From: Patescibacteria group bacterium
Lineage (GTDB): Bacteria > Patescibacteriota > Minisyncoccia > Phycocordibacterales > UBA918
Direction of reading: 5' to 3'
Assembly: GCA_019752815.1 (NCBI GenBank)
Contig: JAIELQ010000005.1
Coordinates: forward strand, 140,816 to 204,815
Length of the DNA: 64,000 bases
In this document: piece after piece, positions 40,340-53,222 of the stretch
Numbering within the stretch: position 1 is the first letter of the stretch
How the letters are laid out: every line of letters starts with the position of its first letter
Notes under the pieces: generated by a model
Told to the model about the DNA's origin: nothing
Databases searched by the model: none
The model's input: the letters and a program-made list of their open reading frames with translations, nothing else
Made by a program: the position numbers and the translations under genes

Positions 40340-40436
40340 GGTTGTAATTATAGCAGAACAAATCTACTGAAGATTGTTATAGACAAAATTAAATATGTAA
40401 TGTACAGTAAATTAAGATCTAGAGAAAGGAACTGTC

Positions 40437-40791: not shown

Positions 40792-42141
40792 CTAAGATTC
40801 TTTTTCGGCTCCTGAGAGAAGCATGTCAATTCTGTTCATATCCCGCGGGAACATAGTGGCCTCACGAATATTTTTGAGACCCAGAATTTGCATCGTCATA
40901 CGTTCGGCACCAAAGGCGAATCCACCTTCTGGAGGGACGCCATATTTGAAGGCCTCCAAGAACATCGTGATTGCGTTCGGGTCCATGCCCCATGTTTTGA
41001 CGTGTTCACATAGTTGATTGTAGTCATTGATGCGTCGACCTCCAGAGAGCCATTCAATCCCTCGACATAATAAGTCCATACCTTCATTGAATTCAGGTTT
41101 TTCTGGATTTGGAAATACATAAAATGGTTTTTGACGTGTTGGGTAGCCATATACGTACACAAAATCAGAATCAGTTTCCTTTTTAACGATGTCGCACAGC
41201 GTCCGTTCGTCTTCAGGATTAAGATCTTTTTCACCACGAACATCACGGCCTGTTTTTTCAAAAATCAATTCTTGAGCTTCAGTGAGTGAATATGTTGGTG
41301 TATTTTCAAGAAGTTTTGGTAGTGTGGCATTGAGAAGCTGTAACTCCGATGAACATTTGCGTTCAACTTCAGACAAAATATATCGAACCGTTTTTTCTGA
41401 CATATCTCGAACATCTTTCCAGGAGTCAATAAATCCCATTTCTGCATCCAGAGAAACGATTTCTGTGATGTGACGCGTGGTTGCGCTCGGTTCAGCCCGG
41501 AATACTTTGTTAACAGAGAATACGCGTTCAAACGCAGTCATTACAATTTGTTTGTAGAGTTGCGGTGATTGAGTGAGGTAGGCTTTTTTATCAAAGTAAT
41601 TAACTTGAAATACCTCAGCTCCACCTTCTGCCGTTGCTGGTGTAATACTTGGTGCTTGGAATTCGAAAAATTCCTCACGTTTCATAAATTCACGGAATGA
41701 ATCAATGATGACACTTTGCACCTTGAATATAGCCTGGAGTCTCGGGTGGCGTAGCGTGAGCGCTCGGTGATCTAGTTCTGTTGTAAGGTCTAGATTGTAT
41801 CCATCAAGCGACATATCAAATGGAAGTGACTCGGCTTGTGCGAGTACAACAATTTTTGTTATTTCGAGTTCAATGGTTCCGTTTTCAGCATTTGGGTTTA
41901 CCATTTTTTCTGGTCGAGCATGCACAATACCATGCACTTCAACCACCCATTCTTGCTTAAGTTGTTGTGCTACTTCTAATACTTCAGGTTTCCCAAAAAC
42001 AACTCCTTGAATTTTTCCTGAACGGTCTCTGAAATCAAAGAAAGCCATTTTTCCTTGAATTCGTGCCACATCTACCCAACCTTTAATGGCTACTTCTTTT
42101 TCAAGATTTTGCTTCAGGTCTCGAATTAGTGTTCGTTCCAT
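40792..42141 (-). CDS. aspS: Aspartate--tRNA ligase, type 2 (archaeal/eukaryal-like class IIb; probably non-discriminating)
   Basis: ATAEGGAEVF, YLTQSPQLYKQ, FRAEPSATTRHITE, KYGVPPEGGFAFGAERM, NIREATMFPRD all follow the archaeal-type AspRS pattern (compare FRAEEHNTTRHLNE and PPHGGFGLGAERL). Confidence 0.85.
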   Translation of the reverse strand: MERTLIRDLKQNLEKEVAIKGWVDVARIQGKMAFFDFRDRSGKIQGVVFGKPEVLEVAQQLKQEWVVEVHGIVHARPEKMVNPNAENGTIELEITKIVVLAQAESLPFDMSLDGYNLDLTTELDHRALTLRHPRLQAIFKVQSVIIDSFREFMKREEFFEFQAPSITPATAEGGAEVFQVNYFDKKAYLTQSPQLYKQIVMTAFERVFSVNKVFRAEPSATTRHITEIVSLDAEMGFIDSWKDVRDMSEKTVRYILSEVERKCSSELQLLNATLPKLLENTPTYSLTEAQELIFEKTGRDVRGEKDLNPEDERTLCDIVKKETDSDFVYVYGYPTRQKPFYVFPNPEKPEFNEGMDLLCRGIEWLSGGRRINDYNQLCEHVKTWGMDPNAITMFLEAFKYGVPPEGGFAFGAERMTMQILGLKNIREATMFPRDMNRIDMLLSGAEKES

Positions 42142-42154
42142 ATTTATAAATTAA

Positions 42155-42425
42155 TTTAATTTGAGTTGGAGAAACAAAAAATCGCCTCTCCACAAATATT
42201 ATTACTAATACATGTGCAGGGGCGATCCAAAAATATTTGCTCGCGGTGCCACCCTACTTCCCTGCGGCGTATGCGCAATCAGGGCCCTCTTAGATACGCA
42301 ATAACGGGCGTTCCCGGAGACGGTTGTCTCAGGCCTCGGCAGGTGTCAGCTGCGTCGTTGGTTAAATACAGTATGCCAGTAACTAGATAGTTGTCAATTA
42401 TGTTTCGAAGCGATTACATTTGTCA
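42155..42425 (-). promoter_or_regulatory. T-box riboswitch leader controlling aspS
   Basis: On the minus strand: T-box motif AGGGTGGCACCGCG (revcomp of 42242-42255), then a terminator hairpin ATCGCCCCTGCAC...GTGGAGAGGCGAT + TTTTTTG (42161-42218) immediately before the aspS ATG. A GAC-A triplet in the upstream stem region (CUGACAC) could be an Asp specifier. Confidence 0.75.
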
Positions 42426-42435
42426 CTTCTTATTA

Positions 42436-43386
42436 TTAAATTGTAATACCTATTACATCCCGCACTCGACCCAGCATGTCATTTGAAACTAGTTTGGCTT
42501 TCCGTGCCCCTTCCGCTAATACCCCTTTTACATCGTCATCACTAATTGCAGCCCGTTTAGCGCGCATTGGTTCGATAAATGCATCAATATCTTCGATTAG
42601 CGCCTCTTTGAGATTTTTGTACTTTCCGGCATTTTCAGTGTAGAGAGTTTCTAGTTCGGCTTCGGTTCGGAATAGTTTGTGAATGGCGTAGACATTTTCT
42701 GGCCGGTCGCCGGTACTGTCGGTCACGATACTCATCACCGCCTTTTGGATATCTTCGCGACTGCCAAATAGTGGAATGGTGTTTTTGTAGCTTTTACTCA
42801 TTTTGGCACCATCGGTTCCAGGCACTACACCCACTGCTTCGAGAATGAGTTCTTTTGGTTCTTTTAATACCTCACCATAAGCGTTATTGAATTTGGCGAC
42901 TGCCTCTCGGGTATATTCCAGGTGTTGTCGTTGGTCTTCCCCTACTGGTACCAAATCAGTCCCATAGAGCAAAATATCCGCTGCCATGAGCATTGGGTAC
43001 GTAAATAGTCCGGCGTTCGCTTCGAGGCCTTTGGCCACTTTGTCCTTGTATGAGTGAGCTAACATCAAAAATGGTACGGTCACCATACAGTTGAGGACCC
43101 AACCCATTTCGGTGTGGTCTGGATTATCTGATTGGCGGAATAATGTTACTTGTTCAGGGTCTACGCCAACGGCTAGGTAATCACGAACGGTGTTGTAGAT
43201 ACTTGCCTTAAGAGCTTCTCTATCTCGCACCGATGTCAGCGCGTGGTAGTCAGCCACCATGAGGTAAAAGTTGGCGGAATCTTTTTTATCGTTGTACAAA
43301 TCCAAAAATGGCTTCATCGCGCCAAAATAGTTTCCGATATGCAGGTCTCCCGATGACTGTAGTCCCGTTAATATAGTTTGTTTCAT
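42436..43386 (-). CDS. trpS: Tryptophan--tRNA ligase
   Basis: TGLQSSGDLHIGNYFGA (HIGH), and KMSKSY. Confidence 0.92.
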   Translation of the reverse strand: MKQTILTGLQSSGDLHIGNYFGAMKPFLDLYNDKKDSANFYLMVADYHALTSVRDREALKASIYNTVRDYLAVGVDPEQVTLFRQSDNPDHTEMGWVLNCMVTVPFLMLAHSYKDKVAKGLEANAGLFTYPMLMAADILLYGTDLVPVGEDQRQHLEYTREAVAKFNNAYGEVLKEPKELILEAVGVVPGTDGAKMSKSYKNTIPLFGSREDIQKAVMSIVTDSTGDRPENVYAIHKLFRTEAELETLYTENAGKYKNLKEALIEDIDAFIEPMRAKRAAISDDDVKGVLAEGARKAKLVSNDMLGRVRDVIGITI

Positions 43387-43407
43387 AGGTTGTGTAATAG
43401 TAACAAA

Positions 43408-43830
43408 TTACCGAGCATTTCCAAAATACTCTCTCATTTTAGTGCAGGCGGCGATAACTTCAGCTAAAAGTTCGTCTGTCACCTCTAAATTCTGGGCATG
43501 TTCCATAATTGGTCTTACTGATTGAATTTTGCGACCAAATGGTTCCATCCATTCATGTCGTGGAAACATCCAGAGATGAAAACCATGCTGAGTATCTTCA
43601 TTTTGGAATAAGTAGACGTCATTAATGCTGAGCACTTCAGACATCGCTTTACGAACTTTGGTAATTATTTGTCCAAATTCCATTGCCTCAGCCTCGGTAA
43701 ATTCACCTACTGAACGAGTAGTTCTTTTGGTGGATAGGATAAAGAAACCGACAATAGGCACTTCCCAATCTTGCGCTACAATAAAATTTTTGTTCTCAAG
43801 GATAACTTCGTTGGGAAATAAAATCTTCAT
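43408..43830 (-). CDS. HIT-like (histidine triad-related) protein with a degenerate triad
   Basis: HIT-like fold. The triad position reads TQHGFHLWMFPRH (H-x-x-H-x-W instead of HxHxHxx). Confidence 0.45.
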   Translation of the reverse strand: MKILFPNEVILENKNFIVAQDWEVPIVGFFILSTKRTTRSVGEFTEAEAMEFGQIITKVRKAMSEVLSINDVYLFQNEDTQHGFHLWMFPRHEWMEPFGRKIQSVRPIMEHAQNLEVTDELLAEVIAACTKMREYFGNAR

Positions 43831-43836
43831 GATGGA

Positions 43837-45513
43837 TTAACTCACCAGTGGCAGTGTGAGTACAAACGTTGAGCCACGTTGCTCACCTGCTGAACTACAG
43901 GTAATGTCACCACCCATCGCGCGGGCCATTTCTCGGGCCACAAATAGTCCCAATCCGGTGCCGTTAATGTTTACACTGTTAGCATTTTTAGCCCGACTGA
44001 ATTTCTGGAAGAGGTCATTAATAGTTTCAGGACTCATACCAATACCAGTATCAATAACATTTACAAATAACTGCTTGCGCCCAATATCATCGTACACAAA
44101 TACAGTGATACTTCCCTTTTGGGTGTACTTAAGTGAATTGTTGATGAGGTTATGGAGTATCTGTTGGGTTTTTGAAATATCAGCGTGCACAATACCTTGT
44201 CCCCGCATATCGGACTTAAAGAGTAACAGTAGTCCCGATCGGGTGGCTTCAGGACGCAAGTCGTCAACGATATGTTCGGCTTGCTCCCGGAGATTAAAAT
44301 CAGTATATGTGTACTTCATATTGCCAGATTCGATACGTGAGACATTAAGGAAGTCTTCAATCGAAAACGCCATCAATTTGGCTGATTCATGAATCCGTCC
44401 CAACACCTCGGTCATTTTTTCTGGTGCAGGCCCATAGTTGCCATCAAGAATCATTGACGTATAGCCACGAATAGCCGTCAGTGGACTCCGGAGTTGGTGC
44501 GAAGCAATCGACACAAATTCTGATTTTTGTTGGTCCACAATCCGTAATCGTTCGTTGGTTGATTCCAGATTAGTCGCGAGTTTCTCAATTTCTTCACGTT
44601 GGGTCACTTCACTGCGGACACTTTTGATTAAGAGTGTGCCGAGTACCGAGAAGAACAAAATAGTTCCCACTGCAATAATCTGCGCATTTTCAATTGACCG
44701 CACCAAGAGTAGTGAACACAACAAAATCAACTGTCCGGCCATCAAGGCCTCGGTCGCAAGGAGCTTAATTTTAAATGTTTGATACCGTACGAGGATGTAC
44801 CCCAAAAATGCTACAAATATTGGCATCCCAAATAAACCAATCTGTCCCGATTCCCAGTCACCGTAGAAGCTTCCGATGATGTTGCCAATTGAGAATGAGA
44901 GTAAAAATAACAAGATGCCTGCGGCAACAAGAATGGTCTCACGACGTTCCCGGCGCTTGAGTCTCACTTCTGCAATCGTGAGTAACAAGATTAATCCTAC
45001 AAATAAAAATTCAAAACCGTACACGTAGTACTGCCACAAAGGTCCTTCGGTGGCGTAACGTAAACAGTTGGTAAAATCAAAGTTTACTAGATTTAGTTTG
45101 GTGTGTCCGAATAAAATCAGAGGTAAGAACATTACAAAGATACCCAACTCAACTTTAAATGGTGGAAAAGATTTATTAAAGAAGGCGTATATGAAATAGA
45201 ATGCTCCGACGTACATCAAAAGCTCAAAGTATATTAGCGTGGACCAGACAAACATAATCACGTCCGATCGTTCTGAGGCCCAGATAATGAGGTCAAGGAA
45301 ACACCAAATAGCGAACATCACGGTGGTAAACAGGAGTGCCTGAGCTGCTTTATTGCGCACGTTGGCACGTAATACAAAAATTGCAATAATTAATCCCGAT
45401 ATAGATGGTAAAAAGTGTGCGTAGTACTGGAAACTCCCAATCAGGTTTTCTGACAGAATTAAGTAGGTGGCAGTACCCCAGGAACAAATTGTGGGATCAA
45501 CGATGTTTAGCAT
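43837..45513 (-). CDS. Sensor histidine kinase with a multi-TM N-terminal sensor domain (HK-1)
   Basis: About 7 N-terminal TM helices, a coiled coil, H-box FVSIASHQLRSPLTAIRGYTSMILDG, and HATPase N/G boxes (LINNSLKYT..., IDTGIGM, GTGLGLFVAREM). Confidence 0.85.
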   Translation of the reverse strand: MLNIVDPTICSWGTATYLILSENLIGSFQYYAHFLPSISGLIIAIFVLRANVRNKAAQALLFTTVMFAIWCFLDLIIWASERSDVIMFVWSTLIYFELLMYVGAFYFIYAFFNKSFPPFKVELGIFVMFLPLILFGHTKLNLVNFDFTNCLRYATEGPLWQYYVYGFEFLFVGLILLLTIAEVRLKRRERRETILVAAGILLFLLSFSIGNIIGSFYGDWESGQIGLFGMPIFVAFLGYILVRYQTFKIKLLATEALMAGQLILLCSLLLVRSIENAQIIAVGTILFFSVLGTLLIKSVRSEVTQREEIEKLATNLESTNERLRIVDQQKSEFVSIASHQLRSPLTAIRGYTSMILDGNYGPAPEKMTEVLGRIHESAKLMAFSIEDFLNVSRIESGNMKYTYTDFNLREQAEHIVDDLRPEATRSGLLLLFKSDMRGQGIVHADISKTQQILHNLINNSLKYTQKGSITVFVYDDIGRKQLFVNVIDTGIGMSPETINDLFQKFSRAKNANSVNINGTGLGLFVAREMARAMGGDITCSSAGEQRGSTFVLTLPLVS

Positions 45514-45527
45514 GTAGTAGTAATAAA

Positions 45528-45677
45528 TTAATTAGGATTTTTTTCAGGCCCAGACGGATTGGTCATAACATCGTAGTCTTTTTCTACAATATAGACGAAA
45601 TACATCAAACAAATTGAAATGGTGATGCAAAATGCCAGTATGATGCGCATGATGGTGGCTTTGGTGCTGTCGTGCAT
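45528..45677 (-). CDS. Small single-TM peptide (49 aa) immediately upstream of HK-1
   Basis: MHDSTKATIMRIILAFCITISICLMYFVYIVEKDYDVMTNPSGPEKNPN. Shares the motif Y-x-x-I-(I)-VEK-(N/D)-(F/Y) with the small ORF upstream of HK-2. Below the 60-aa ORF-track cut-off. Confidence 0.3.
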   Translation of the reverse strand: MHDSTKATIMRIILAFCITISICLMYFVYIVEKDYDVMTNPSGPEKNPN

Positions 45678-45692
45678 AGAATGAAATAAGTT

Positions 45693-47354
45693 TTAAATAA
45701 GTGGCAGTGTAATCGTAAAGGTGGAACCGAGACCTTCCCCATCTGACGTTACCGTAATATCGCCACCCATCGCGCGAGCCATTTCTCGGGCGACAAATAA
45801 TCCTAATCCGGTACCCATGATGTTCGCTGAACTGGCCACTTTGGCGCGAGCAAATTTACCAAACAGTTTTTGCAGACTTTCTGGACTTAGTCCGAGGCCG
45901 GTATCGATGATATCGACATACATCTTTTTGGTTTTAACATCGTCGTGGGCATAGACTGTAACACTTCCTTTCGGCGTATACTTCAACGCATTGTTGATAA
46001 GATTATGCAGTATCTGTTGTGTCTTCCCCGCGTCCGCATGAACCATTCCGGTGCCAGTCATATCAGATCGGAACATAAGCAACAGTCCACGACGCACCGC
46101 GTCTGCCCGCAGGTCATCAACTACATGCTCGGCCTGTTCCTTGAAATTCATATCCTTGTAGTCGTACTTCATGTTACCTGATTCAATCCGAGACACCTCC
46201 AAAAAGTCATCAATCGACGATGCCATAAACACTGTTGATTCAGCAATTCGCCCCAGTGCCTCGTTAGCTTTATCCGGCAACTTCCCAAAACTCCCCTCCG
46301 TCATCATCGACACATATCCCCGAATAGCTGTAAGCGGACTACGTAATTGATGTGAAGCAATCGAAACAAACTCCGATTTTTGTTTGTCCAAAATCTGCAA
46401 CCGTTCATTGGCTTTTTCCAGCCCAACAGCCAAGCGTTCAATTTCTGCTTTTTGTTCAAGTTCACGACGCATGACTCTGGAAAGAATTATTCCTAGAAAT
46501 CCAAAAATGATAACAGTAATAAAAATAATTGGGCGTGCGTAACTCATGTCACGAAATAGCAACATTGAAAACATTAGTATCCATAATGCTGAAATAAGTA
46601 TTTCAGTAAATAGAGTTTTTGTGTGAAAGGCACGGTATTTAATTATTGAGTACGATACAAGGCCGGCAAATAATGGCATTCCAAAGAGTTTGTATTGTTC
46701 ATAATAAGGACCAAGGTCAAAGAATAGCGTGAAGTTACCTGCAGTAAAAAATGCTAAAAATATAAACGTAGAAATACCAATGAACAGAAGCTGGCGGCGT
46801 TCGGTTTTCTTTTCTATCCTGCTCAAGCCTTTAATTATAAATAGTACAACTATAAAAAGTAGAAAAACTTCTACAAAGTACATGTATTGAATTACAATCC
46901 CCTCGAATGCCCCTGTGTCACAATCTGGTGACAAGCCAATCACGTTCAAACTTGTATGAGCAAATAATAGAATCGGAACAAGAAGTAGTGAGAAACAAAC
47001 TTTCATCCATGTAGGCATATCAACTTGCCTGTTACTAAAGAGGTATACCAAGTAAACGGCAGAGAGGTACATTAAAAGCTCAACTGGAACAATCAGTGAC
47101 CAGAAAAACACCACCATTTCAGGTGTCGGTGAGGCCCATAAGATTAAGTTAAAGTATACCCATGTCGCAAATAGAACTGTTGTAACAAAGAGAACTCTGT
47201 TCGCAAGCTCTTTTGGATTACTGATAAGGACCTGGAAACCTAAAAACAATGAAATAACAAGTGGTAGTACATGTGTGTAGTAGATAAGCTTACCGACGTT
47301 TTCAGAAAATATGAGTAGGGCTGCGCTCCCCCATTCGCAAGGATTATCTATCAT
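45693..47354 (-). CDS. Sensor histidine kinase, paralog of HK-1 (HK-2)
   Basis: Same architecture; H-box FVSIASHQLRSPLTAIRGYVSMMTEG; N/G boxes LINNALKYT, IDTGLGL, GTGLGLFVAREM. Confidence 0.85.
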   Translation of the reverse strand: MIDNPCEWGSAALLIFSENVGKLIYYTHVLPLVISLFLGFQVLISNPKELANRVLFVTTVLFATWVYFNLILWASPTPEMVVFFWSLIVPVELLMYLSAVYLVYLFSNRQVDMPTWMKVCFSLLLVPILLFAHTSLNVIGLSPDCDTGAFEGIVIQYMYFVEVFLLFIVVLFIIKGLSRIEKKTERRQLLFIGISTFIFLAFFTAGNFTLFFDLGPYYEQYKLFGMPLFAGLVSYSIIKYRAFHTKTLFTEILISALWILMFSMLLFRDMSYARPIIFITVIIFGFLGIILSRVMRRELEQKAEIERLAVGLEKANERLQILDKQKSEFVSIASHQLRSPLTAIRGYVSMMTEGSFGKLPDKANEALGRIAESTVFMASSIDDFLEVSRIESGNMKYDYKDMNFKEQAEHVVDDLRADAVRRGLLLMFRSDMTGTGMVHADAGKTQQILHNLINNALKYTPKGSVTVYAHDDVKTKKMYVDIIDTGLGLSPESLQKLFGKFARAKVASSANIMGTGLGLFVAREMARAMGGDITVTSDGEGLGSTFTITLPLI

Positions 47355-47527
47355 ATATTGTTGTTATGAAAATAGAAGTCTAATGCACTTGGCTCCTCCT
47401 CGTCTGCTGTAAATTGTTTGAAATTCTTTTCAACAATAATATTTACATATGTAGCACCGACAGATAAAAGAATAAAAAAGACAAGAAAAAAATAAAATAT
47501 TAAGCTATTTTTTTCGTGTCGGTTCAT
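47351..47527 (-). CDS. Small single-TM peptide (58 aa) translationally coupled to HK-2 by an ATGA overlap
   Basis: MNRHEKNSLIFYFFLVFFILLSVGATYVNIIVEKNFKQFTADEEEPSALDFYFHNNNI. Its stop TGA overlaps the HK-2 ATG; it starts 4 nt after the SET gene stop. Confidence 0.35.
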   Translation of the reverse strand: MNRHEKNSLIFYFFLVFFILLSVGATYVNIIVEKNFKQFTADEEEPSALDFYFHNNNI

Positions 47528-47531
47528 ATCA

Positions 47532-48014
47532 TTATGTTACAGACAACTTTTTACTCCTCAGTTTCTTGAAAAACGTTGGAATGTATGGAAGGTGGCTCCT
47601 ATACACTTTCTCAGGTAGTCTTTGTATTGAATGAATTTTCTTTCTGCATGAATGAGTTTTGCAGGCGCAAGACATTTCCCAGAGCAAATCACCGTCACTC
47701 ATCGAATAGTCAAAAGTTAGCTCTGTGTCTGGAGCGATACTCTTTAATGCAATGACTTTTTTTCTACCAACAATAGCAGTATTAGGTTCACAGCTATGGT
47801 TAAAATACCTCCAGATCGTATTTTTAGGATCTAGCCAAATAGTATCTGTAATTCCATACCATAAAGGGATACTCGAAGCTTCCTTGGCTGTTTGGGTTTT
47901 CTTCCTGACTAACTCACCTTCTAGGAAAGCGATGTGTTCCCCTTTCTTAATTTTCTCTGAAGAAAATATCCCCTTTCCCTCAATCCTACTTTTTCCGACA
48001 TACAGCTTTTTCAT
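47532..48014 (-). CDS. SET domain protein (putative protein-lysine methyltransferase) with a Cys-rich post-SET region
   Basis: GKGIFSSEKIKKGEHIAFLEGEL (N-SET/GxG), NHSCEPN (the canonical SET NHSCxPN pseudoknot motif), ELTFDY, and post-SET CACKTHSCRKK. Confidence 0.8.
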   Translation of the reverse strand: MKKLYVGKSRIEGKGIFSSEKIKKGEHIAFLEGELVRKKTQTAKEASSIPLWYGITDTIWLDPKNTIWRYFNHSCEPNTAIVGRKKVIALKSIAPDTELTFDYSMSDGDLLWEMSCACKTHSCRKKIHSIQRLPEKVYRSHLPYIPTFFKKLRSKKLSVT

Positions 48015-48019
48015 GGTTC

Positions 48020-48856
48020 TTAAATTGTAGCATGAACATTTTTTGAATTATGATTAATCCCACGTTTTGCCCTCAATGCAAAAATACCTACTAATGCATG
48101 TAAAAAGGCATTGCTTAATGGGTAAAACATTAATGGATGCCAAAGTGCATCATGTGTGATGAATGTTACGATTCCCAGTAGTGCGTATGCCAGAGCCCAA
48201 ATAAACCAAGGTGAAGCAGCTTCGGTGTAATCAGAGTTATAGGTTGTGCGAAGTATTGGGTAAAAGGCTGGAAATGTTGATAGGTTAGATAAAAATAAGA
48301 ACAGAACAACAAATGTTTCTTTTGTTTCAATTTCTAAATTTCCGAACAAAATTAAGAACCATATAGAAACATAGCCAATGGTAATTACTATGTCAGAAAC
48401 AAATGAAAACTTGTCATATTTATCATTAGGCCACCAATCTTCTGGCCACCAATTTGTCGGATCATTTTTTCTGGCTCTTACCCAGCATCTATAAGAAACA
48501 ATGATTGCAAATACAGCACAGACTGACGGTAGAATAAGTTCTGGAAAAGTGGCGTCAGTATCCCATTCGAGAATTGTCAGAATGGCGGTACCATAGGCAA
48601 ACATGAACCAGGTAACCGGATTAGGGTCAATGTCTTCATGAAGTATATAAATTAGGTAACCGACGACTTGTAAGATGCCGGCAATAATACCCAGGAGAAG
48701 TAAAATTGAGATACTGCTTAATGCTTCTGTAGAAGAAAGTTTGTAGAACGCATATGTTCCGATACCATACAGCGTTGTAAAGGTAATAAAAAAGTAAACT
48801 AAAAAACGCACCGGAAACTCAAATGCGAAATTAATTACTTTGGCCACTAGGTTCAT
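48020..48856 (-). CDS. Trp-rich polytopic membrane protein, paralog A (family unknown)
   Basis: 8 TM; motifs TWFMFAYGTAILTILEWD, WWPEDWWPND, NLSTFPAFYPILRTTY. AT-rich codon usage like the rest of the window. Confidence 0.55.
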   Translation of the reverse strand: MNLVAKVINFAFEFPVRFLVYFFITFTTLYGIGTYAFYKLSSTEALSSISILLLLGIIAGILQVVGYLIYILHEDIDPNPVTWFMFAYGTAILTILEWDTDATFPELILPSVCAVFAIIVSYRCWVRARKNDPTNWWPEDWWPNDKYDKFSFVSDIVITIGYVSIWFLILFGNLEIETKETFVVLFLFLSNLSTFPAFYPILRTTYNSDYTEAASPWFIWALAYALLGIVTFITHDALWHPLMFYPLSNAFLHALVGIFALRAKRGINHNSKNVHATI

Positions 48857-48967
48857 TTCTACAGTATAGAGTATTTTATCAATATATTTTGAAATGTGCG
48901 GGGATTTACATATTTAGAAAATAAAAAATTCACCCGACGCCATATTGTTATGGCGTCGGGTGGTGTT

Positions 48968-49744
48968 TTACTCGGCAGGGTTCATTACCGCCGGTTTTGG
49001 TTCTCTTCCGGCAAAGATGGCCATGAGACCATGCATTACGGTGTTGATGACCGGATAGGACATCAGCGCCAAGAATGCATAGAAGCTGACGTCCCAAGTA
49101 AGCGGCGAAGCGCTTATCGGCCAGACCATGCCGTCGCTTCCATGTACCCAGGTGGGTACGAGGAGTAATGCATAGGCCACGGCCCAGATTGTCCACGGAC
49201 GAGCATCCTCTTTTTCCGGATGGGCCCAGGCCTGCCGCAGGATTGGCACGAAGTTCGGAAACGTCGTCAGGTTTGACGCAACCAGGAAGGCAATAACCCA
49301 CCACAGGTGCGTGTTCCCTTCTGTCGTTCCAAACAGAGTGAAGATCCAAAGAACGGTGTAGCAGATGGTCAGCGCGATGTCAGCGGCAAATGCCTTGCCA
49401 TCGGTTTCCTTCCACTCGACTTTCCATTCTTGTGGCCACCACTCCCCCGTCAGACGGAGGTTTGCGCGCCAGATTCCAACTGCCACCCCAATGCCCCCGA
49501 GGGAACAAATGATAGGCAGCAACAGAACACTGAATACATTCATCCACGAAACATCGGCAGCCGCTTCCTTCCACATGGAGTCAAGCTCCATGACGGTCAG
49601 AAGTGCTGTTCCGTACGCGAACATGAACCACGTCAGCGGTTCTGCTTCCTTGCCTTCCTTACGGATGACAAGGATATAGTAAGCGATGTATCCAGCAAGC
49701 TGGAAAATTCCGGCCGCAAGGCCAAAGTAAGTCGCATCGACCAT
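48968..49744 (-). CDS. Trp-rich polytopic membrane protein, paralog B, encoded in a GC-rich block
   Basis: Shares the motifs TWFMFAYGTALLTVMELD, WWPQEWKVEWKE, NLTTFPNFVPILRQAW with paralog A at moderate identity. DNA composition is markedly GC-richer than the flanks. Confidence 0.55.
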   Translation of the reverse strand: MVDATYFGLAAGIFQLAGYIAYYILVIRKEGKEAEPLTWFMFAYGTALLTVMELDSMWKEAAADVSWMNVFSVLLLPIICSLGGIGVAVGIWRANLRLTGEWWPQEWKVEWKETDGKAFAADIALTICYTVLWIFTLFGTTEGNTHLWWVIAFLVASNLTTFPNFVPILRQAWAHPEKEDARPWTIWAVAYALLLVPTWVHGSDGMVWPISASPLTWDVSFYAFLALMSYPVINTVMHGLMAIFAGREPKPAVMNPAE

Positions 49745-49837
49745 TTCGGCCTCCTATTGTTTTTTGACCAGACTGTCAATACTATAGCATACTTTAACAA
49801 AAAAAGTAAACCCCACACCCCAAAACCTGTTGATAAA

Positions 49838-50320
49838 TTAGTTTTCTATAATAATCACTCTCTCACTTTCAGTTGGTTCCTCAAATGCATCGATTGTTTG
49901 CTGAACTAACTCCCTACTAACTTTTGATCTTGTTGGATTCAGGTTGTTTTCTTCCCAACGTTGCCAAATTGTTTCGGTAGATGTTTTTACATAAATCACC
50001 TTACACTCAACATTGTTAGCTCTTGCTATCGCACGCAGTTTATCCCGACTAGCTACAGTATGATTGGTAGAATCATACAAAACCGACTTCCCTGCTTGTA
50101 GCGCACCAGCTGTCAGCTCATAGGAGGTATTAAATATCACATCCCACTCCTGTGTATCAGGAAGCTTGTTGTCATCCCAGCTAAAACCATTTGATTCAAA
50201 CAGCGAGTCAATACTTATCAGTTCAATATCAGTTTCAGCTACAATTTGTCGAGCAAGATAAGACTTCCCGGAATATGGATGTCCGCATAAGATAAATAGA
50301 GTACATTTTGAGTGCTGCAT
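49838..50320 (-). CDS. P-loop NTPase, predicted small kinase (AAA_33/zeta-toxin-like fold)
   Basis: Walker A CGHPYSGKSYLA at the N-terminus; 160 aa. Confidence 0.55.
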   Translation of the reverse strand: MQHSKCTLFILCGHPYSGKSYLARQIVAETDIELISIDSLFESNGFSWDDNKLPDTQEWDVIFNTSYELTAGALQAGKSVLYDSTNHTVASRDKLRAIARANNVECKVIYVKTSTETIWQRWEENNLNPTRSKVSRELVQQTIDAFEEPTESERVIIIEN

Positions 50321-50338
50321 TTTTTGAAACAGTAAAGT

Positions 50339-51172
50339 CTATTTTAGTTTAGTCGTCTTAACGAATTCTTTAACTTTTTTAACATCAATTCTTTGTTCAA
50401 ATCCTTTTACGTTTCTTTCACCAGCCTTATTTGTGCCTGACTTTAAAGCCGTGCTCACAATTGCTCCATTTGAATTTTCCAATAAACCTTTAATGTTATC
50501 AACGCTCGCTCCACTGCCAACCAAAATTGGGAAATCTTGAATATTCTTACGTAGTTTAGAAACGGTCTCAGCAGTAGGTGCTTGTCCTGTCCAGTCGCCT
50601 GTAACTATTACAGCATCTGCCCCAGCTTTGATTGCTTTTTTACTTGCCGCTTCAAGCGTGTGAGTCGTTATGTGTTTTGAGTGCTTAACTAACACATCAG
50701 CAAATAGAGCGACATTATTTGCTAGATACAGTTTTTGAATCGCTTTAACATGCTTTGGATTTCCTGTGATGACACCACAATATGGTTCAACCGTATCGAC
50801 AAATACTGGAATACGAATAAATTTTAAATCATATGTATGAGCAAGAGCAAAAGCAACCTCATAATCATTCCAAAGGACGCTGGCACCGAGCGGTAATCTT
50901 GTATGTTTTTTTAGCTCGTTTATGAGATAACCCATTGCAATAGCTACTGAGGAATCAATTTTTTCTTTTGAAAGTCCGTAGTTATTCTCAATAAAAATAC
51001 CGTCAACCCCACCTGCTTCAAAGGTCTTTAAGTCAGCAATAGCGTATTTAAGTGCATGCTTGTATCCTGCGAAATCATCAAATCCCAACAGTGGTGGAAA
51101 ATGTAAAGCTCCAATAACTATATTTTTGTCTTTTTTAAAGATTTTTTTAAGAGGGTTTACCATGCTGCACAT
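50339..51172 (-). CDS. BtpA/SgcQ family TIM-barrel protein
   Basis: IVIGALHFPPLLG, FIENNYG, VLVKHS, AVIVTGDWTGQAP, LVGSGASVDNI, NGAIVSTALK follow the BtpA family pattern. Confidence 0.6.
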   Translation of the reverse strand: MCSMVNPLKKIFKKDKNIVIGALHFPPLLGFDDFAGYKHALKYAIADLKTFEAGGVDGIFIENNYGLSKEKIDSSVAIAMGYLINELKKHTRLPLGASVLWNDYEVAFALAHTYDLKFIRIPVFVDTVEPYCGVITGNPKHVKAIQKLYLANNVALFADVLVKHSKHITTHTLEAASKKAIKAGADAVIVTGDWTGQAPTAETVSKLRKNIQDFPILVGSGASVDNIKGLLENSNGAIVSTALKSGTNKAGERNVKGFEQRIDVKKVKEFVKTTKLK

Positions 51173-51190
51173 TATAGCGCATTATTTAAG

Positions 51191-51961
51191 TTACAGCTTT
51201 TGCGCTTTAAATCCGAGAATATCTTTATATCTATTATTTCCAAATAGTATTGGATAAAAGTCTTCTTCTGCGATGATTTCTTCATTTGAGTTTGTTGTAC
51301 AAACGACTTGACCCACATTTATTTGTTTAAAGTTTTCAATTTCTTTAGACAAAACGTAGTCTCCTTCAAAATTCTTTTTAAATGCATCGTACACGTCATA
51401 TACAGAACTTGTTGATACTTCGCGTGGATTAGAAAAAGGATTTTGATTAATTAGTCCGTAACTCATTAGAATAGCAGCTATATCATGAACTGTTGCATTC
51501 ATAACGGATTCACTATCATCTAGCCCGTACTCAAACGCAATGCCAATTTTTGCTTGTGAGACTAGAGCATTGTCGCTCTTGTGTCTCATGATTAATACTT
51601 TTGGAGGAGAAATTAACTCAAGCACTCGTTTAGTCTCTTCATCATATTTTGTAACAATAATCATTGAGTTCTCACCCAAATCAGTTGTTTTTGTAGAATG
51701 TATATCAATCACTAAATCAGCCTGTAAAATTTTTTCAGATAGTTCAAATGCCCTTCTCTCCTCATAATTACCATCCGGTTTACCAGGAAAAACACGATTG
51801 AGATCCCCTTCAGTAAAAGGCACCCCTAGTTCAGAAGCTTTTGGATTACCAACAATAAATTCAACTTGGTTAGGGTACAAGTTTAACTTTCGCAATTCTT
51901 CAATAACCTGAAGTCCAATTCTTTCATGTCCATGAGTCGACCCAATAATTAAAATTTTCAT
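51191..51961 (-). CDS. Succinylglutamate desuccinylase/aspartoacylase (AstE/AspA) family zinc hydrolase
   Basis: MKILIIGSTHGHERIG (the HxxE zinc site), DLNRVFPG, DLVIDIHST. Confidence 0.75.
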   Translation of the reverse strand: MKILIIGSTHGHERIGLQVIEELRKLNLYPNQVEFIVGNPKASELGVPFTEGDLNRVFPGKPDGNYEERRAFELSEKILQADLVIDIHSTKTTDLGENSMIIVTKYDEETKRVLELISPPKVLIMRHKSDNALVSQAKIGIAFEYGLDDSESVMNATVHDIAAILMSYGLINQNPFSNPREVSTSSVYDVYDAFKKNFEGDYVLSKEIENFKQINVGQVVCTTNSNEEIIAEEDFYPILFGNNRYKDILGFKAQKL

Positions 51962-51983
51962 TTTAGATTTACGTGATTGTAAT

Positions 51984-52508
51984 TTAATTTAAATACAAAA
52001 AGACCATTGGGAGGAGGAGCCACCAGAAGAACCATTCTTTGGGTGAAAACAGTGATGCTATCGGGGTGCCGGGGGTGACGAATTCCGTGACGGGTAAGAC
52101 GTGAAAACTGTAGGCCATAATGAGGATGGTGCCAGCGAGTGCGAGGAGGATTTTTTTGAAGAAACTCTCGAATTTTTTCTCCCGATAGGCGTCGGGCATG
52201 ACGCGGGCAACTAATATTGTGGCGATGGTAGTGAATATGGCAAACAGCACCATCTTCCCTACAGCCAGACTATGTTCGCTCGCGTTATTCGGGAGGAAGG
52301 TGTCGTAGTATGGGAACTCGAGTGAAATCAAGAGCGCCAGGTACAATCCAAAAATGATATTGATGAGGGACTGCCGCCCACGCACAATGGCCCACACGAT
52401 GAAGAATCCAAATACACAAAAGAGGTAGATTAATTCCTGAAGCAGACTAAGAACGTAAGCCGTGTCCATGTCTTTATATTCTATACCCCATCCGACAATT
52501 TGTACCAC
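51984..52508 (-). CDS. Hypothetical membrane protein (5 TM)
   Basis: Hydrophobic profile only. Confidence 0.45.
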   Translation of the reverse strand: MVQIVGWGIEYKDMDTAYVLSLLQELIYLFCVFGFFIVWAIVRGRQSLINIIFGLYLALLISLEFPYYDTFLPNNASEHSLAVGKMVLFAIFTTIATILVARVMPDAYREKKFESFFKKILLALAGTILIMAYSFHVLPVTEFVTPGTPIASLFSPKEWFFWWLLLPMVFLYLN

Positions 52509-52522
52509 TGAGCTGTGGTGTA

Positions 52523-53213
52523 AATCTTAGGGGTTAAACCCCTAAGATTGTTATACTTAAATTAATGCCACGAAAAATAATCCCACTTATTACTGGTGAT
52601 ATATATCATGTGTACAATCGGGGTGTAGATAAACGTGAAATTTTTTTAGATAAAGAAGATTACCTCAGATTTTATATATCGTTGGATTTCTTTAATGTTA
52701 TTGAGCCTGTGATAAATTTTGATAGTGCAAAAGTAAGAAAAGATAGAAATCTTAAGGAAGATAAATTAGTTGAAATTCTCGCATATTCCCTGTTACCAAA
52801 TCACTTCCATTTAATATTGCAACAAAATGTAGATAGAGGAATAAGTGAATTTATGAAGCGAATTTCTGGTGGGTATACTAGTTATTTTAATTCAAAACTT
52901 GAGAGATCGGGTTCCTTACTTCAAGGTACATTTAAAAAAGTACCAGTTCAGAGTCAAGAACAATTACAGTATTTAATGGCTTATGTAAATGAAAATCATT
53001 TTGTGCATGGTATAGAAATTAAACGTGAAATTTGTCACTCGAGCTCACTGCACTACCAAGGTCTTAATAAAAGCAAAATAATTAATCAATCAAATGAGAA
53101 GTATAACTTTGAAAGTAATGTACTTCTAGCAAAAGACATCTACCAAAAAAGACGAAGTTTAAAGTACTCAGATTTAATGGAAAACTAATCTTAGGGGTTT
53201 AACCCCTAAGATT
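52523..53213 (+). mobile_element. IS200-like/RAYT transposase unit: a HuH tyrosine transposase gene flanked on both sides by near-identical palindromic hairpins
   Basis: Left hairpin AATCTTAGGGG-TTAAA-CCCCTAAGATT (52523-52549). Right hairpin AATCTTAGGGG-TTTAA-CCCCTAAGATT (53187-53213) overlapping the transposase stop. No other copies seen in the window. Confidence 0.7.
52565..53188 (+). CDS. IS200-like / REP-associated tyrosine transposase (RAYT, TnpA_REP)
   Basis: GDIYHVYNRGVDKREIFLDKEDYLRFY..., then HuH motif LPNHFHLILQ, and downstream Tyr-containing YLMAYVNENH. Confidence 0.7.
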   Translation: MPRKIIPLITGDIYHVYNRGVDKREIFLDKEDYLRFYISLDFFNVIEPVINFDSAKVRKDRNLKEDKLVEILAYSLLPNHFHLILQQNVDRGISEFMKRISGGYTSYFNSKLERSGSLLQGTFKKVPVQSQEQLQYLMAYVNENHFVHGIEIKREICHSSSLHYQGLNKSKIINQSNEKYNFESNVLLAKDIYQKRRSLKYSDLMEN

Positions 53214-53222
53214 AGGGCGTTG

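Follow-up and report, generated by a model that had tools for sequence, protein, structure and literature searches.

Between positions 42436 and 52508 of the window analysed here (a 64,000-nucleotide stretch of a Patescibacteria contig, JAIELQ010000005.1), 13 consecutive open reading frames (ORFs) lie on the minus strand, from a polytopic membrane protein gene, TM161, to the tryptophanyl-tRNA synthetase gene trpS. Between these two ends stand genes for an AstE/AspA-family deacylase, a BtpA-family protein, a small P-loop kinase, two Trp-rich membrane proteins (WrichA and WrichB), a SET-domain protein, two small transmembrane (TM) proteins each followed by a histidine kinase (HK), and a HIT-like protein. 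A first-pass annotation had proposed that the array is either a single regulatory unit or an accessory cassette that landed upstream of trpS. Our analysis points instead to a segment of the conserved backbone of Kaiserbacteria-like Patescibacteria that carries a small variable insert and is divided into several transcription units, and we give a probability of roughly 0.7 to this reading, in which the array is neither one operon nor one cassette. The array is ordinary as an operon or island candidate and contains two uncharacterised conserved associations, one between a membrane protein family, a SET gene and a sensor kinase, the other between BtpA, a TrpD-like gene and trpS. All array features are on the minus strand unless marked (+).

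Backbone synteny in related genomes

We fetched loci around homologs of BtpA, the Trp-rich protein and the kinase, and mapped the window proteins onto them by tblastn (loci are cited by their L numbers); the nearest genome matches belong to Candidatus Kaiserbacteria. Common to about 30 contigs is the order GrpE-DnaK-DnaJ-(Impact)-(RAYT)-TM161-[WrichA]-WrichB-SET-small TM-HK-TrpRS-leader/AspRS-peptidase-(HD)-ScpA-ScpB, where RAYT denotes a REP-associated tyrosine transposase, with identities to the window of 78-88% for DnaK, 61-85% for TrpRS and 40-70% for the Trp-rich (Wrich) proteins. SET directly follows Wrich in 31 of the 32 loci with enough sequence, and the kinase is separated from trpS by 36-89 nt in nine loci and by an insertion of 1.3-5 kb in five. 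TM161 (51984-52508), the first backbone gene past DnaJ/Impact/RAYT, encodes a protein with four hydrophobic segments that gave no match in a Pfam search; its 174-residue ORF opens at a GTG, and the true start is probably the internal ATG at 52469, giving 161 residues, the length found in relatives, where homologs of 158-164 residues occupy the equivalent position in about 25 cases. The first-pass proposal to see by synteny which genes travel together thus receives a divided answer, with Wrich, SET, the small TM gene, HK and trpS staying together in about 30 contigs and the AstE-BtpA-kinase group and the HIT-like gene not doing so.

Gene content, order and G+C content at third codon positions (GC3) make the array a mosaic. 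Within the region, GC3 is lowest in AstE, BtpA and the kinase gene (0.24-0.32) and highest in TM161 (0.606) and WrichA (0.637), the window mean being 0.40. The ancestral order was probably GrpE-DnaK-DnaJ-(Impact)-(RAYT)-TM161-Wrich-SET-small TM-HK-trpS-T-box/aspS-peptidase-ScpA-ScpB, from which the window would depart by three additions: the low-GC3, 2.7-kb AstE-BtpA-kinase insert, a second small-TM/kinase pair, such that both variants of the pair stand in tandem, and the divergent HIT-like gene between the second kinase (HK1) and trpS.

If the whole ten kb were one accessory cassette inserted upstream of trpS and delimited by the RAYT, the presence of that transposase and its flanking palindromes at one end, the uneven composition and the shifting position of BtpA among relatives would find an explanation. 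We regard this as extremely unlikely, however, because TM161, Wrich, SET, small TM, kinase and trpS are collinear with DnaK/DnaJ on one side and AspRS/ScpA on the other in about 30 relatives, whether the RAYT is present or not, and the variable genes are only AstE-BtpA-kinase and the HIT-like gene. The transposase is itself syntenic. The element (52523-53215, +) contains a Y1 transposase gene at 52565-53188 (Pfam Y1_Tnp 31.1 bits, cutoff 23) between inverted palindromes at 52523-52549 and 53185-53215; the palindrome has no copies in the window beyond these two flanks, and no dispersed REP family is visible there. A RAYT stands at the matching site, on the opposite strand, in L006, L050, L086 and L093 with 52-62% identity and is absent in the others. 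It is an old resident, not a recent insertion, and its position at the edge of the array is coincidental. What remains of the proposed cassette upstream of trpS is the AstE-BtpA-kinase segment alone, the membrane, SET, kinase and trpS genes being ancestral backbone.

The bounds drawn by the first-pass annotation, the RAYT and the T-box-aspS unit, do not hold either: minus-strand genes extend over at least 38 kb (about 26.1-64 kb), with the RAYT almost the sole plus-strand gene in that run, and the limits of the array within it are arbitrary. Within these bounds the ten-kb one-strand series is present as described, with gaps of -4 nt (an ATGA overlap) to 111 nt and not of 3-111 nt, and nearly all the domain labels given to it were borne out by Pfam and NCBIfam (TrpRS, two HisKA+HATPase_c proteins, SET, AAA_33/KTI12, BtpA and AstE_AspA_cat). 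Gene orientation changes at about 25.8-26.1 kb, from mostly plus (1-25.8 kb) to nearly all minus (26.1-64 kb); the two runs converge there, and the switch may be a replication-terminus-like point.

A variable slot holds the AstE-BtpA-kinase insert

The AstE-BtpA-kinase segment lies between TM161 and WrichA, 7 kb from trpS, and no flanking repeats were found around it. This slot is empty in L094, L100, L120 and L122, and it holds a saccharopine-dehydrogenase-like gene in L086 and an S-adenosylmethionine decarboxylase gene in L089 and L006. In L050 its cargo reaches 7-9 kb, with GNAT, synthetase-like, TrpD-like, TyrRS, glycosyltransferase, HIT, AstE and BtpA genes, and L128 is similar. Features expected of an island, namely a variable slot and low GC3, are thus found in part, and for these three genes alone.

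The first gene of the insert (51191-51961) encodes a 256-residue AstE/AspA-family zinc deacylase (Pfam AstE_AspA_cat 51.6 bits, cutoff 25; GC3 0.241); its nearest counterparts of solved structure are N-acetyl-diaminobutyrate deacetylase and AstE/AspA proteins. For the zinc ligands (HxxE ... H), H-G-H-E and D-I-H-S motifs are present and were aligned to the known ligands by eye. The BtpA/SgcQ-family gene (50339-51172; GC3 0.27) is a 277-codon ORF whose start is probably Met4, at 51163, in agreement with the lengths of homologs and with the -10 box upstream (see below). The protein scores 161.7 bits against Pfam PF03437 (cutoff 30) and 163 bits against TIGR00259 (cutoff 153.4), and its AlphaFold model (mean predicted local distance difference test, pLDDT, 86) is a phosphate-binding TIM barrel. 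Its score against the equivalog model for cyanobacterial photosystem-I BtpA is 163.7, under the cutoff of 400, so a photosystem-I function is not implied.

The third gene (49838-50320) encodes a small P-loop kinase of 160 residues of the AAA_33/KTI12 type (Pfam AAA_33 76.5 bits, KTI12 58 bits), from a family of about 170-residue proteins in Patescibacteria. Like WrichB, its product is identical to an NCBI protein of a Patescibacteria metagenome assembly with K2P47_ locus tags. Among solved structures, the protein is closest to the kinase domain of seryl-tRNA(Sec) kinase, a member of the KTI12 family (E 2.7e-4), and the window protein is without the tRNA-binding half of that enzyme; the resemblance hints at an aminoacyl- or tRNA-related substrate. 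Its closest relatives, 79% and 86% identical, are in L128 (7231-8516) and L129 (6372-7657), where the last 4 nt of AstE are shared with the kinase gene and BtpA does not intervene; in these relatives the kinase appears translationally coupled to AstE within a synthetase-rich neighbourhood.

The first-pass annotation had taken BtpA, the kinase and AstE for a recurring trio. Pairs do recur: AstE adjoins BtpA in L050, L067 and L070 and the kinase in L128 and L129, and among 82 BtpA loci an AstE-family gene is found in 10, often adjacent, and a kinase of the window's type in two. The complete trio was found in the window only. The closest relatives of the window BtpA stand beside TrpD-like and HAD genes (L125, 93%) and beside HIT and AstE genes (L050, 94%).

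Transcription signals probably divide the array into about six units

A terminator-like hairpin of 14 bp with 9 G-C pairs (48931-48962), followed by AATTTTTTAT, lies in the 111-nt gap after WrichA, 5 nt past its stop codon; the fold energy of the gap is -32.5 kcal/mol. The hairpin is kept in six relatives, and three of its base pairs show compensatory double changes. Upstream of WrichA, a promoter-like site (49781-49810) matches the consensus as TTTACT-18 nt-TG-TATAGT and is followed by AGGAGG, the sole Shine-Dalgarno-like site of the array. WrichA would form a unit by itself, provided with a promoter, a ribosome-binding site and a terminator.

Start-proximal -10 boxes precede TM161, BtpA, WrichB, SET and trpS. 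They read TAGAAT 8 nt upstream of the internal ATG of TM161, TATAAT (51164-51169) 7 nt upstream of Met4 of BtpA, TATACT (48863-48868) 6 nt upstream of the ATG of WrichB, where L086 and L088 have a box likewise, and TGcTACAAT 9 nt upstream of the ATG of SET. In front of trpS, the extended -10-like box TGTTACTAT (43397-43405) ends 10 nt upstream of the ATG and is a putative promoter element; 12 of 17 relatives have a TGnTAnnnT element at 6-10 nt before trpS. The pattern extends over the window as a whole, in which 28 of 68 genes have a -10-like hexamer (at least five of the six TATAAT positions) ending 6-11 nt ahead of the ATG, against a background of about 0.4 per position; a further example outside the array is found at 40347-40352. 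Since promoters appear to abut start codons in these 28 genes, short gaps are no evidence of an operon here. Shine-Dalgarno-like sequences are almost absent across the window. Together these features suggest that leaderless or near-leaderless mRNAs are widespread in this organism, which agrees with the reported absence of the anti-Shine-Dalgarno motif from about half of Parcubacteria 16S rRNAs (PMC9297842). Our literature search on leaderless translation in Patescibacteria returned nothing relevant beyond that observation.

Judged from these signals, the array probably comprises about six transcription units, TM161-AstE, BtpA-kinase, WrichA, WrichB, SET-sTM58-HK2-sTM49-HK1-HIT and trpS, after which a T-box-controlled aspS unit would follow. 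A single long operon running from a RAYT-proximal promoter through trpS would account for the common strand of all genes, the gaps of at most 111 nt, the presence of only one strong terminator-like site on the minus strand and the conserved Wrich-SET-sTM-HK-trpS order. We nevertheless consider it very unlikely. The conserved hairpin after WrichA, the promoter-like site and ribosome-binding site of that gene and the start-proximal -10 boxes at BtpA, WrichB, SET and trpS all stand against it, tight spacing is uninformative in a window where 28 of 68 genes have the -10 signal, and relatives differ in the genes that they carry upstream of Wrich. Together with the mosaic content, these signals speak against the single regulatory unit suggested in the first pass.

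Several points weigh against our reading of the array as backbone plus insert with several transcription units. The first-pass annotation had called for terminator prediction along the array, and although the hairpin and the internal -10 boxes were found by sequence, a generic scan for such signals was at chance overall, with 29 promoters against 32.8 expected and 11 terminators against 11.5 in shuffles; for this reading we used only sites backed by position or conservation. Transcription may also read through the hairpin and the internal promoters, and the Wrich-SET-sTM-HK-trpS order is so constant that co-regulation is possible. The GC3 contrasts could reflect expression level or amino-acid content and not gene origin. 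Finally, the relatives are metagenomic contigs of one lineage and not independent samples.

Trp-rich membrane proteins, a SET protein and probably split sensor kinases

The two Trp-rich membrane proteins had been called paralogs on first reading, and they are: WrichA (48968-49744; 258 residues, 6.6% Trp) and WrichB (48020-48856; 278 residues, 4.0% Trp) are 38% identical (E 4e-46). WrichB, the backbone gene, is 100% identical to NCBI K2P47_02015, and WrichA, without a Pfam match, has the highest GC3 of the window. Its high GC yields a long spurious antisense ORF at 49307-49909 (+). We rejected recent horizontal acquisition as the sole explanation of the GC3 of WrichA (0.64), tandem A/B pairs being kept in seven relatives (L086, L088, L089, L094, L099, L100 and L102). 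Among 235 homologs detected for the family none has a Pfam domain, and no sequence match to solved structures was obtained. The AlphaFold model of WrichB (pLDDT 84) has ten helices, and a fold search with it returned weak matches to the KDEL receptor and to SWEET (E 0.07-0.3, TM-score 0.4-0.5), a predicted likeness that we treat as a lead and not as a classification. The family has invariant tryptophans and a WWPEDWWPED-like loop, and within the lineage its genes always stand a few genes upstream of trpS.

Directly downstream lies a gene for a SET-domain lysine methyltransferase-like protein of 160 residues with a post-SET Cys cluster (47532-48014; Pfam SET 51.4 bits); the closest matches to this protein among solved structures are SET domains of the MLL type (E 5e-9). 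Our literature search for SET proteins with kinases in Patescibacteria found nothing relevant.

The two kinases, HK2 (45693-47354; 553 residues) and HK1 (43837-45513; 558 residues), are paralogs with 50% identity, and both carry HisKA and HATPase_c domains above the Pfam cutoffs, in HK2 after about eight transmembrane segments. Each follows a gene for a small single-pass membrane protein with one hydrophobic helix: sTM58 (47351-47527; 58 residues), which overlaps the start of HK2 by 4 nt, and sTM49 (45528-45677; 49 residues), upstream of HK1. In relatives the median distance from the small ORF to the kinase is -4 nt (n=17), and each relative has either an HK1-type set with an sTM49-like protein or an HK2-type set with an sTM58-like protein and a closer SET. 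The window has both sets in tandem, as SET-sTM58-HK2 and then sTM49-HK1. L093-L096 and L103 have one kinase each, to which HK2 is 63-68% identical, and in these loci as well as in L113 and L116 sTM58 homologs precede the kinase; HK1 matches the L006 kinase at 72% identity and the one kinase present in most relatives at 52-64%, and sTM49 homologs (36-52% identity) precede HK1-type kinases in many of them. BLAST finds no similarity between sTM49 and sTM58, and a common motif was seen by eye.

In L003 (2837-4648) the small TM peptide forms the N-terminal extension of a 603-residue kinase, and because of this fusion we infer that the small protein is the detached N-terminal helix of the membrane sensor of the kinase. 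The polytopic kinase with its detached helix may sense some signal in the membrane or envelope. Neither tblastn nor a profile search from four seeds, run with filters off, detected a receiver domain in the 64-kb window, and the kinases may pass phosphate to a response regulator encoded outside it. A putative signalling module made of these genes would have a lysine methyltransferase, and not a response regulator, as the fixed partner of the kinase.

BtpA neighbourhoods link to TrpD-like and trpS genes

The second association became visible beyond the backbone lineage. ORFs were called and clustered in 85 loci around BtpA from genomes of the candidate phyla radiation (CPR) and DPANN, of which 82 yielded a BtpA ORF, and the neighbour clusters were annotated with Pfam and NCBIfam; counts below are loci, of these 82, with the gene within 10 kb of BtpA. 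A TrpD-like Glycos_transf_3 protein, usually encoded immediately upstream of BtpA, recurs in 54 loci; its nearest NCBIfam model is trpD (120-154 bits, cutoff 199). Class-Ic synthetase genes recur in 38 loci, with 45 ORFs in total; 39 of these are trpS by matches at E<=1e-50, 14 of them of archaeal type, and trpS is present in about 35 loci. By a rough estimate, chance would place a given single-copy gene in the 20-kb span of a genome of about 1 Mb in about 2% of loci. Further recurrent neighbours are a chorismate-mutase/methyltransferase fusion (16 loci), HAD phosphatases (16), a short PfkB-like kinase (15), the AstE family (10), a PLP (pyridoxal phosphate) decarboxylase (9), an M20 peptidase (8) and the Trp repressor (5). 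Canonical trp genes (TrpA, B, C, E, F, G) are not among the recurrent neighbours. We also considered the TrpD-like proteins as AMP or nucleoside phosphorylases of the pentose-bisphosphate route and rejected this assignment, the nearest NCBIfam model being trpD and the AMP phosphorylase scores negligible. The impression of the first pass that trpS is oddly placed thus has some basis, in that BtpA and trpS are neighbours far above chance across CPR and DPANN.

BtpA, together with AstE and the small kinase, might then lie near trpS for a functional reason, as part of a tryptophan-linked metabolic or salvage system that CPR and DPANN maintain beside trpS, with the intervening membrane, SET and histidine kinase genes as bystanders. 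The counts for TrpD-like genes and for true and partly archaeal-type trpS argue for such a system, as do the recurrence of the Trp repressor, the chorismate-mutase/methyltransferase fusion and the PLP decarboxylase and the occurrence of BtpA near backbone trpS or aspS, though in different slots, in L003, L067, L126 and the window. For the window array, however, we judge it doubtful. None of the TrpD-like, PfkB, HAD, Trp repressor and chorismate-mutase genes is present in the 64-kb window, most backbone relatives have no BtpA in the block, and no canonical trp gene recurs among the neighbours. A fold search with BtpA retrieved only generic phosphate-binding TIM barrels and did not discriminate between families, and the best solved sequence match of its profile, TrpA (E 6e-4), is weak and not decisive. 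Genes for TyrRS, HisRS and AspRS also occur nearby, and the signal may partly be a general clustering of synthetases. We take the association of BtpA with TrpD-like genes and trpS as a lead and not as an explanation of the array. Our literature search found no paper linking BtpA with TrpD or with CPR/DPANN lineages.

Several close relatives carry extra class-Ic synthetase-like genes in the corresponding region (L050:3062-4219, L126:287-5569 and L128:3978-4982). In one relative a divergent 385-residue synthetase-like paralog (trpS model 49.7 bits, cutoff 176.75) lies directly upstream of a TrpD-like gene, and one relative contig has three tRNA-synt_1b genes in succession.

The HIT-like gene, trpS and a probable T-box leader of aspS

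Between HK1 and trpS lies the gene for a probable, divergent HIT-superfamily protein of 140 residues (43408-43830). The earlier label of HIT-like holds at the level of the family profile, with 231 representative homologs, of which 9 of 26 members match Pfam HIT, and a profile that matches solved HIT proteins at E 5e-7; the window protein's own Pfam score (15.7 bits, E 0.024) is below the cutoff of 21.5. The histidine triad HxHxHxx is incomplete: the family has HFHxW at this motif, the window protein GFHLW. The gene had no tblastn match in the first 85 loci, which include the backbone loci L003, L006, L050 and L067, nor in L086-L124.

The backbone gene trpS (42436-43386) encodes a 316-residue enzyme (Pfam tRNA-synt_1b, PF00579, 185.9 bits; TIGR00233 266, cutoff 176.75), with orthologs downstream of the kinase in relatives. 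Beyond it, a probable T-box leader of reduced form (42215-42367) precedes aspS (40792-42141), which encodes a 449-residue archaeal-type AspRS. The leader was found by a local search with Rfam RF00230 (38.2 bits, E 3.8e-7), and the core AGGGTGGCACCGCG is present. No T-box is found in the window at the Rfam gathering score of 93, nor in 59 kb from three relatives at E 0.001; the low score arises because most of stem I is missing. In nine relatives, a search for the core motif placed GGGTGGNACCRCG at about 100 nt before AspRS. Promoter-like sites (42370-42426) precede the leader, and the hairpin downstream of it (about 42165-42190) has no T-run, for which reason T-box control of aspS may be translational.

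Implications

For this lineage, genes on one strand with short gaps are not evidence of an operon, which bears on any operon-based inference in such genomes. The Pfam-less membrane family locked to a SET gene and a split sensor kinase in all relatives examined but one would define a module in a group whose signalling is almost unknown. BtpA has no established biochemical function outside cyanobacteria, and its linkage to TrpD-like genes and trpS in CPR and DPANN offers a testable metabolic hypothesis. CPR and DPANN organisms are thought to lack amino-acid biosynthesis.

The AstE, BtpA and kinase genes of the window may belong to a pool of metabolic genes that, in other CPR/DPANN genomes, are found grouped with trpS and the gene of a TrpD-like enzyme. 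The putative pathway would comprise a TrpD-like phosphoribosyltransferase, the BtpA TIM barrel, a small kinase of PfkB or KTI12 type, HAD phosphatases, AstE/M20 deacylases and sometimes a Trp repressor. It is conceivable, though on balance unlikely, that BtpA is a fragment of such an undescribed tryptophan-linked pathway, kept beside trpS in CPR and DPANN, and, separately, that Wrich-SET-small TM-kinase is a new kind of membrane signalling module.

Comparison with known systems

Parallels exist in conserved neighbourhoods above the level of operons ('uber-operons') and in the co-directional gene runs of small streamlined genomes. The array resembles them in that genes of unrelated function are collinear on one strand across a lineage, with local insertions and swaps, but the Wrich-SET-small TM-kinase group holds together more tightly than backbone synteny usually does, with no established functional rationale. 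The RAYT likewise shares with REP-associated tyrosine transposases a single Y1_Tnp gene and inverted-palindrome flanks and is inherited at a fixed site; it differs in having no further palindrome copies in the window.

Compared with trp/trpS clusters controlled by TrpR or a T-box, BtpA in the CPR/DPANN loci has trpS and a TrpD-like gene for neighbours, at times with a Trp repressor, whereas the TrpD-like proteins score below the trpD cutoff and canonical trp neighbours are lacking. In the window, BtpA and trpS are the only members of this set, 7 kb apart, and the T-box would control aspS and not trpS.

Sensor histidine kinases can have small membrane-protein partners, as PhoQ has MgrB or SafA. 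The array likewise encodes a single-pass peptide of 49-58 residues just upstream of, or overlapping, a polytopic HisKA/HATPase_c kinase. The fusion of peptide and kinase in one relative points to a split-off sensor helix and not to a feedback inhibitor, and the array kinases, without a response regulator inside the 64 kb, have the SET gene as their constant upstream neighbour. The SET protein has the same small SET plus post-SET architecture as bacterial and archaeal SET lysine methyltransferases, with MLL-type domains as its best solved relatives, and differs from them by its conserved linkage to a membrane protein and a kinase.

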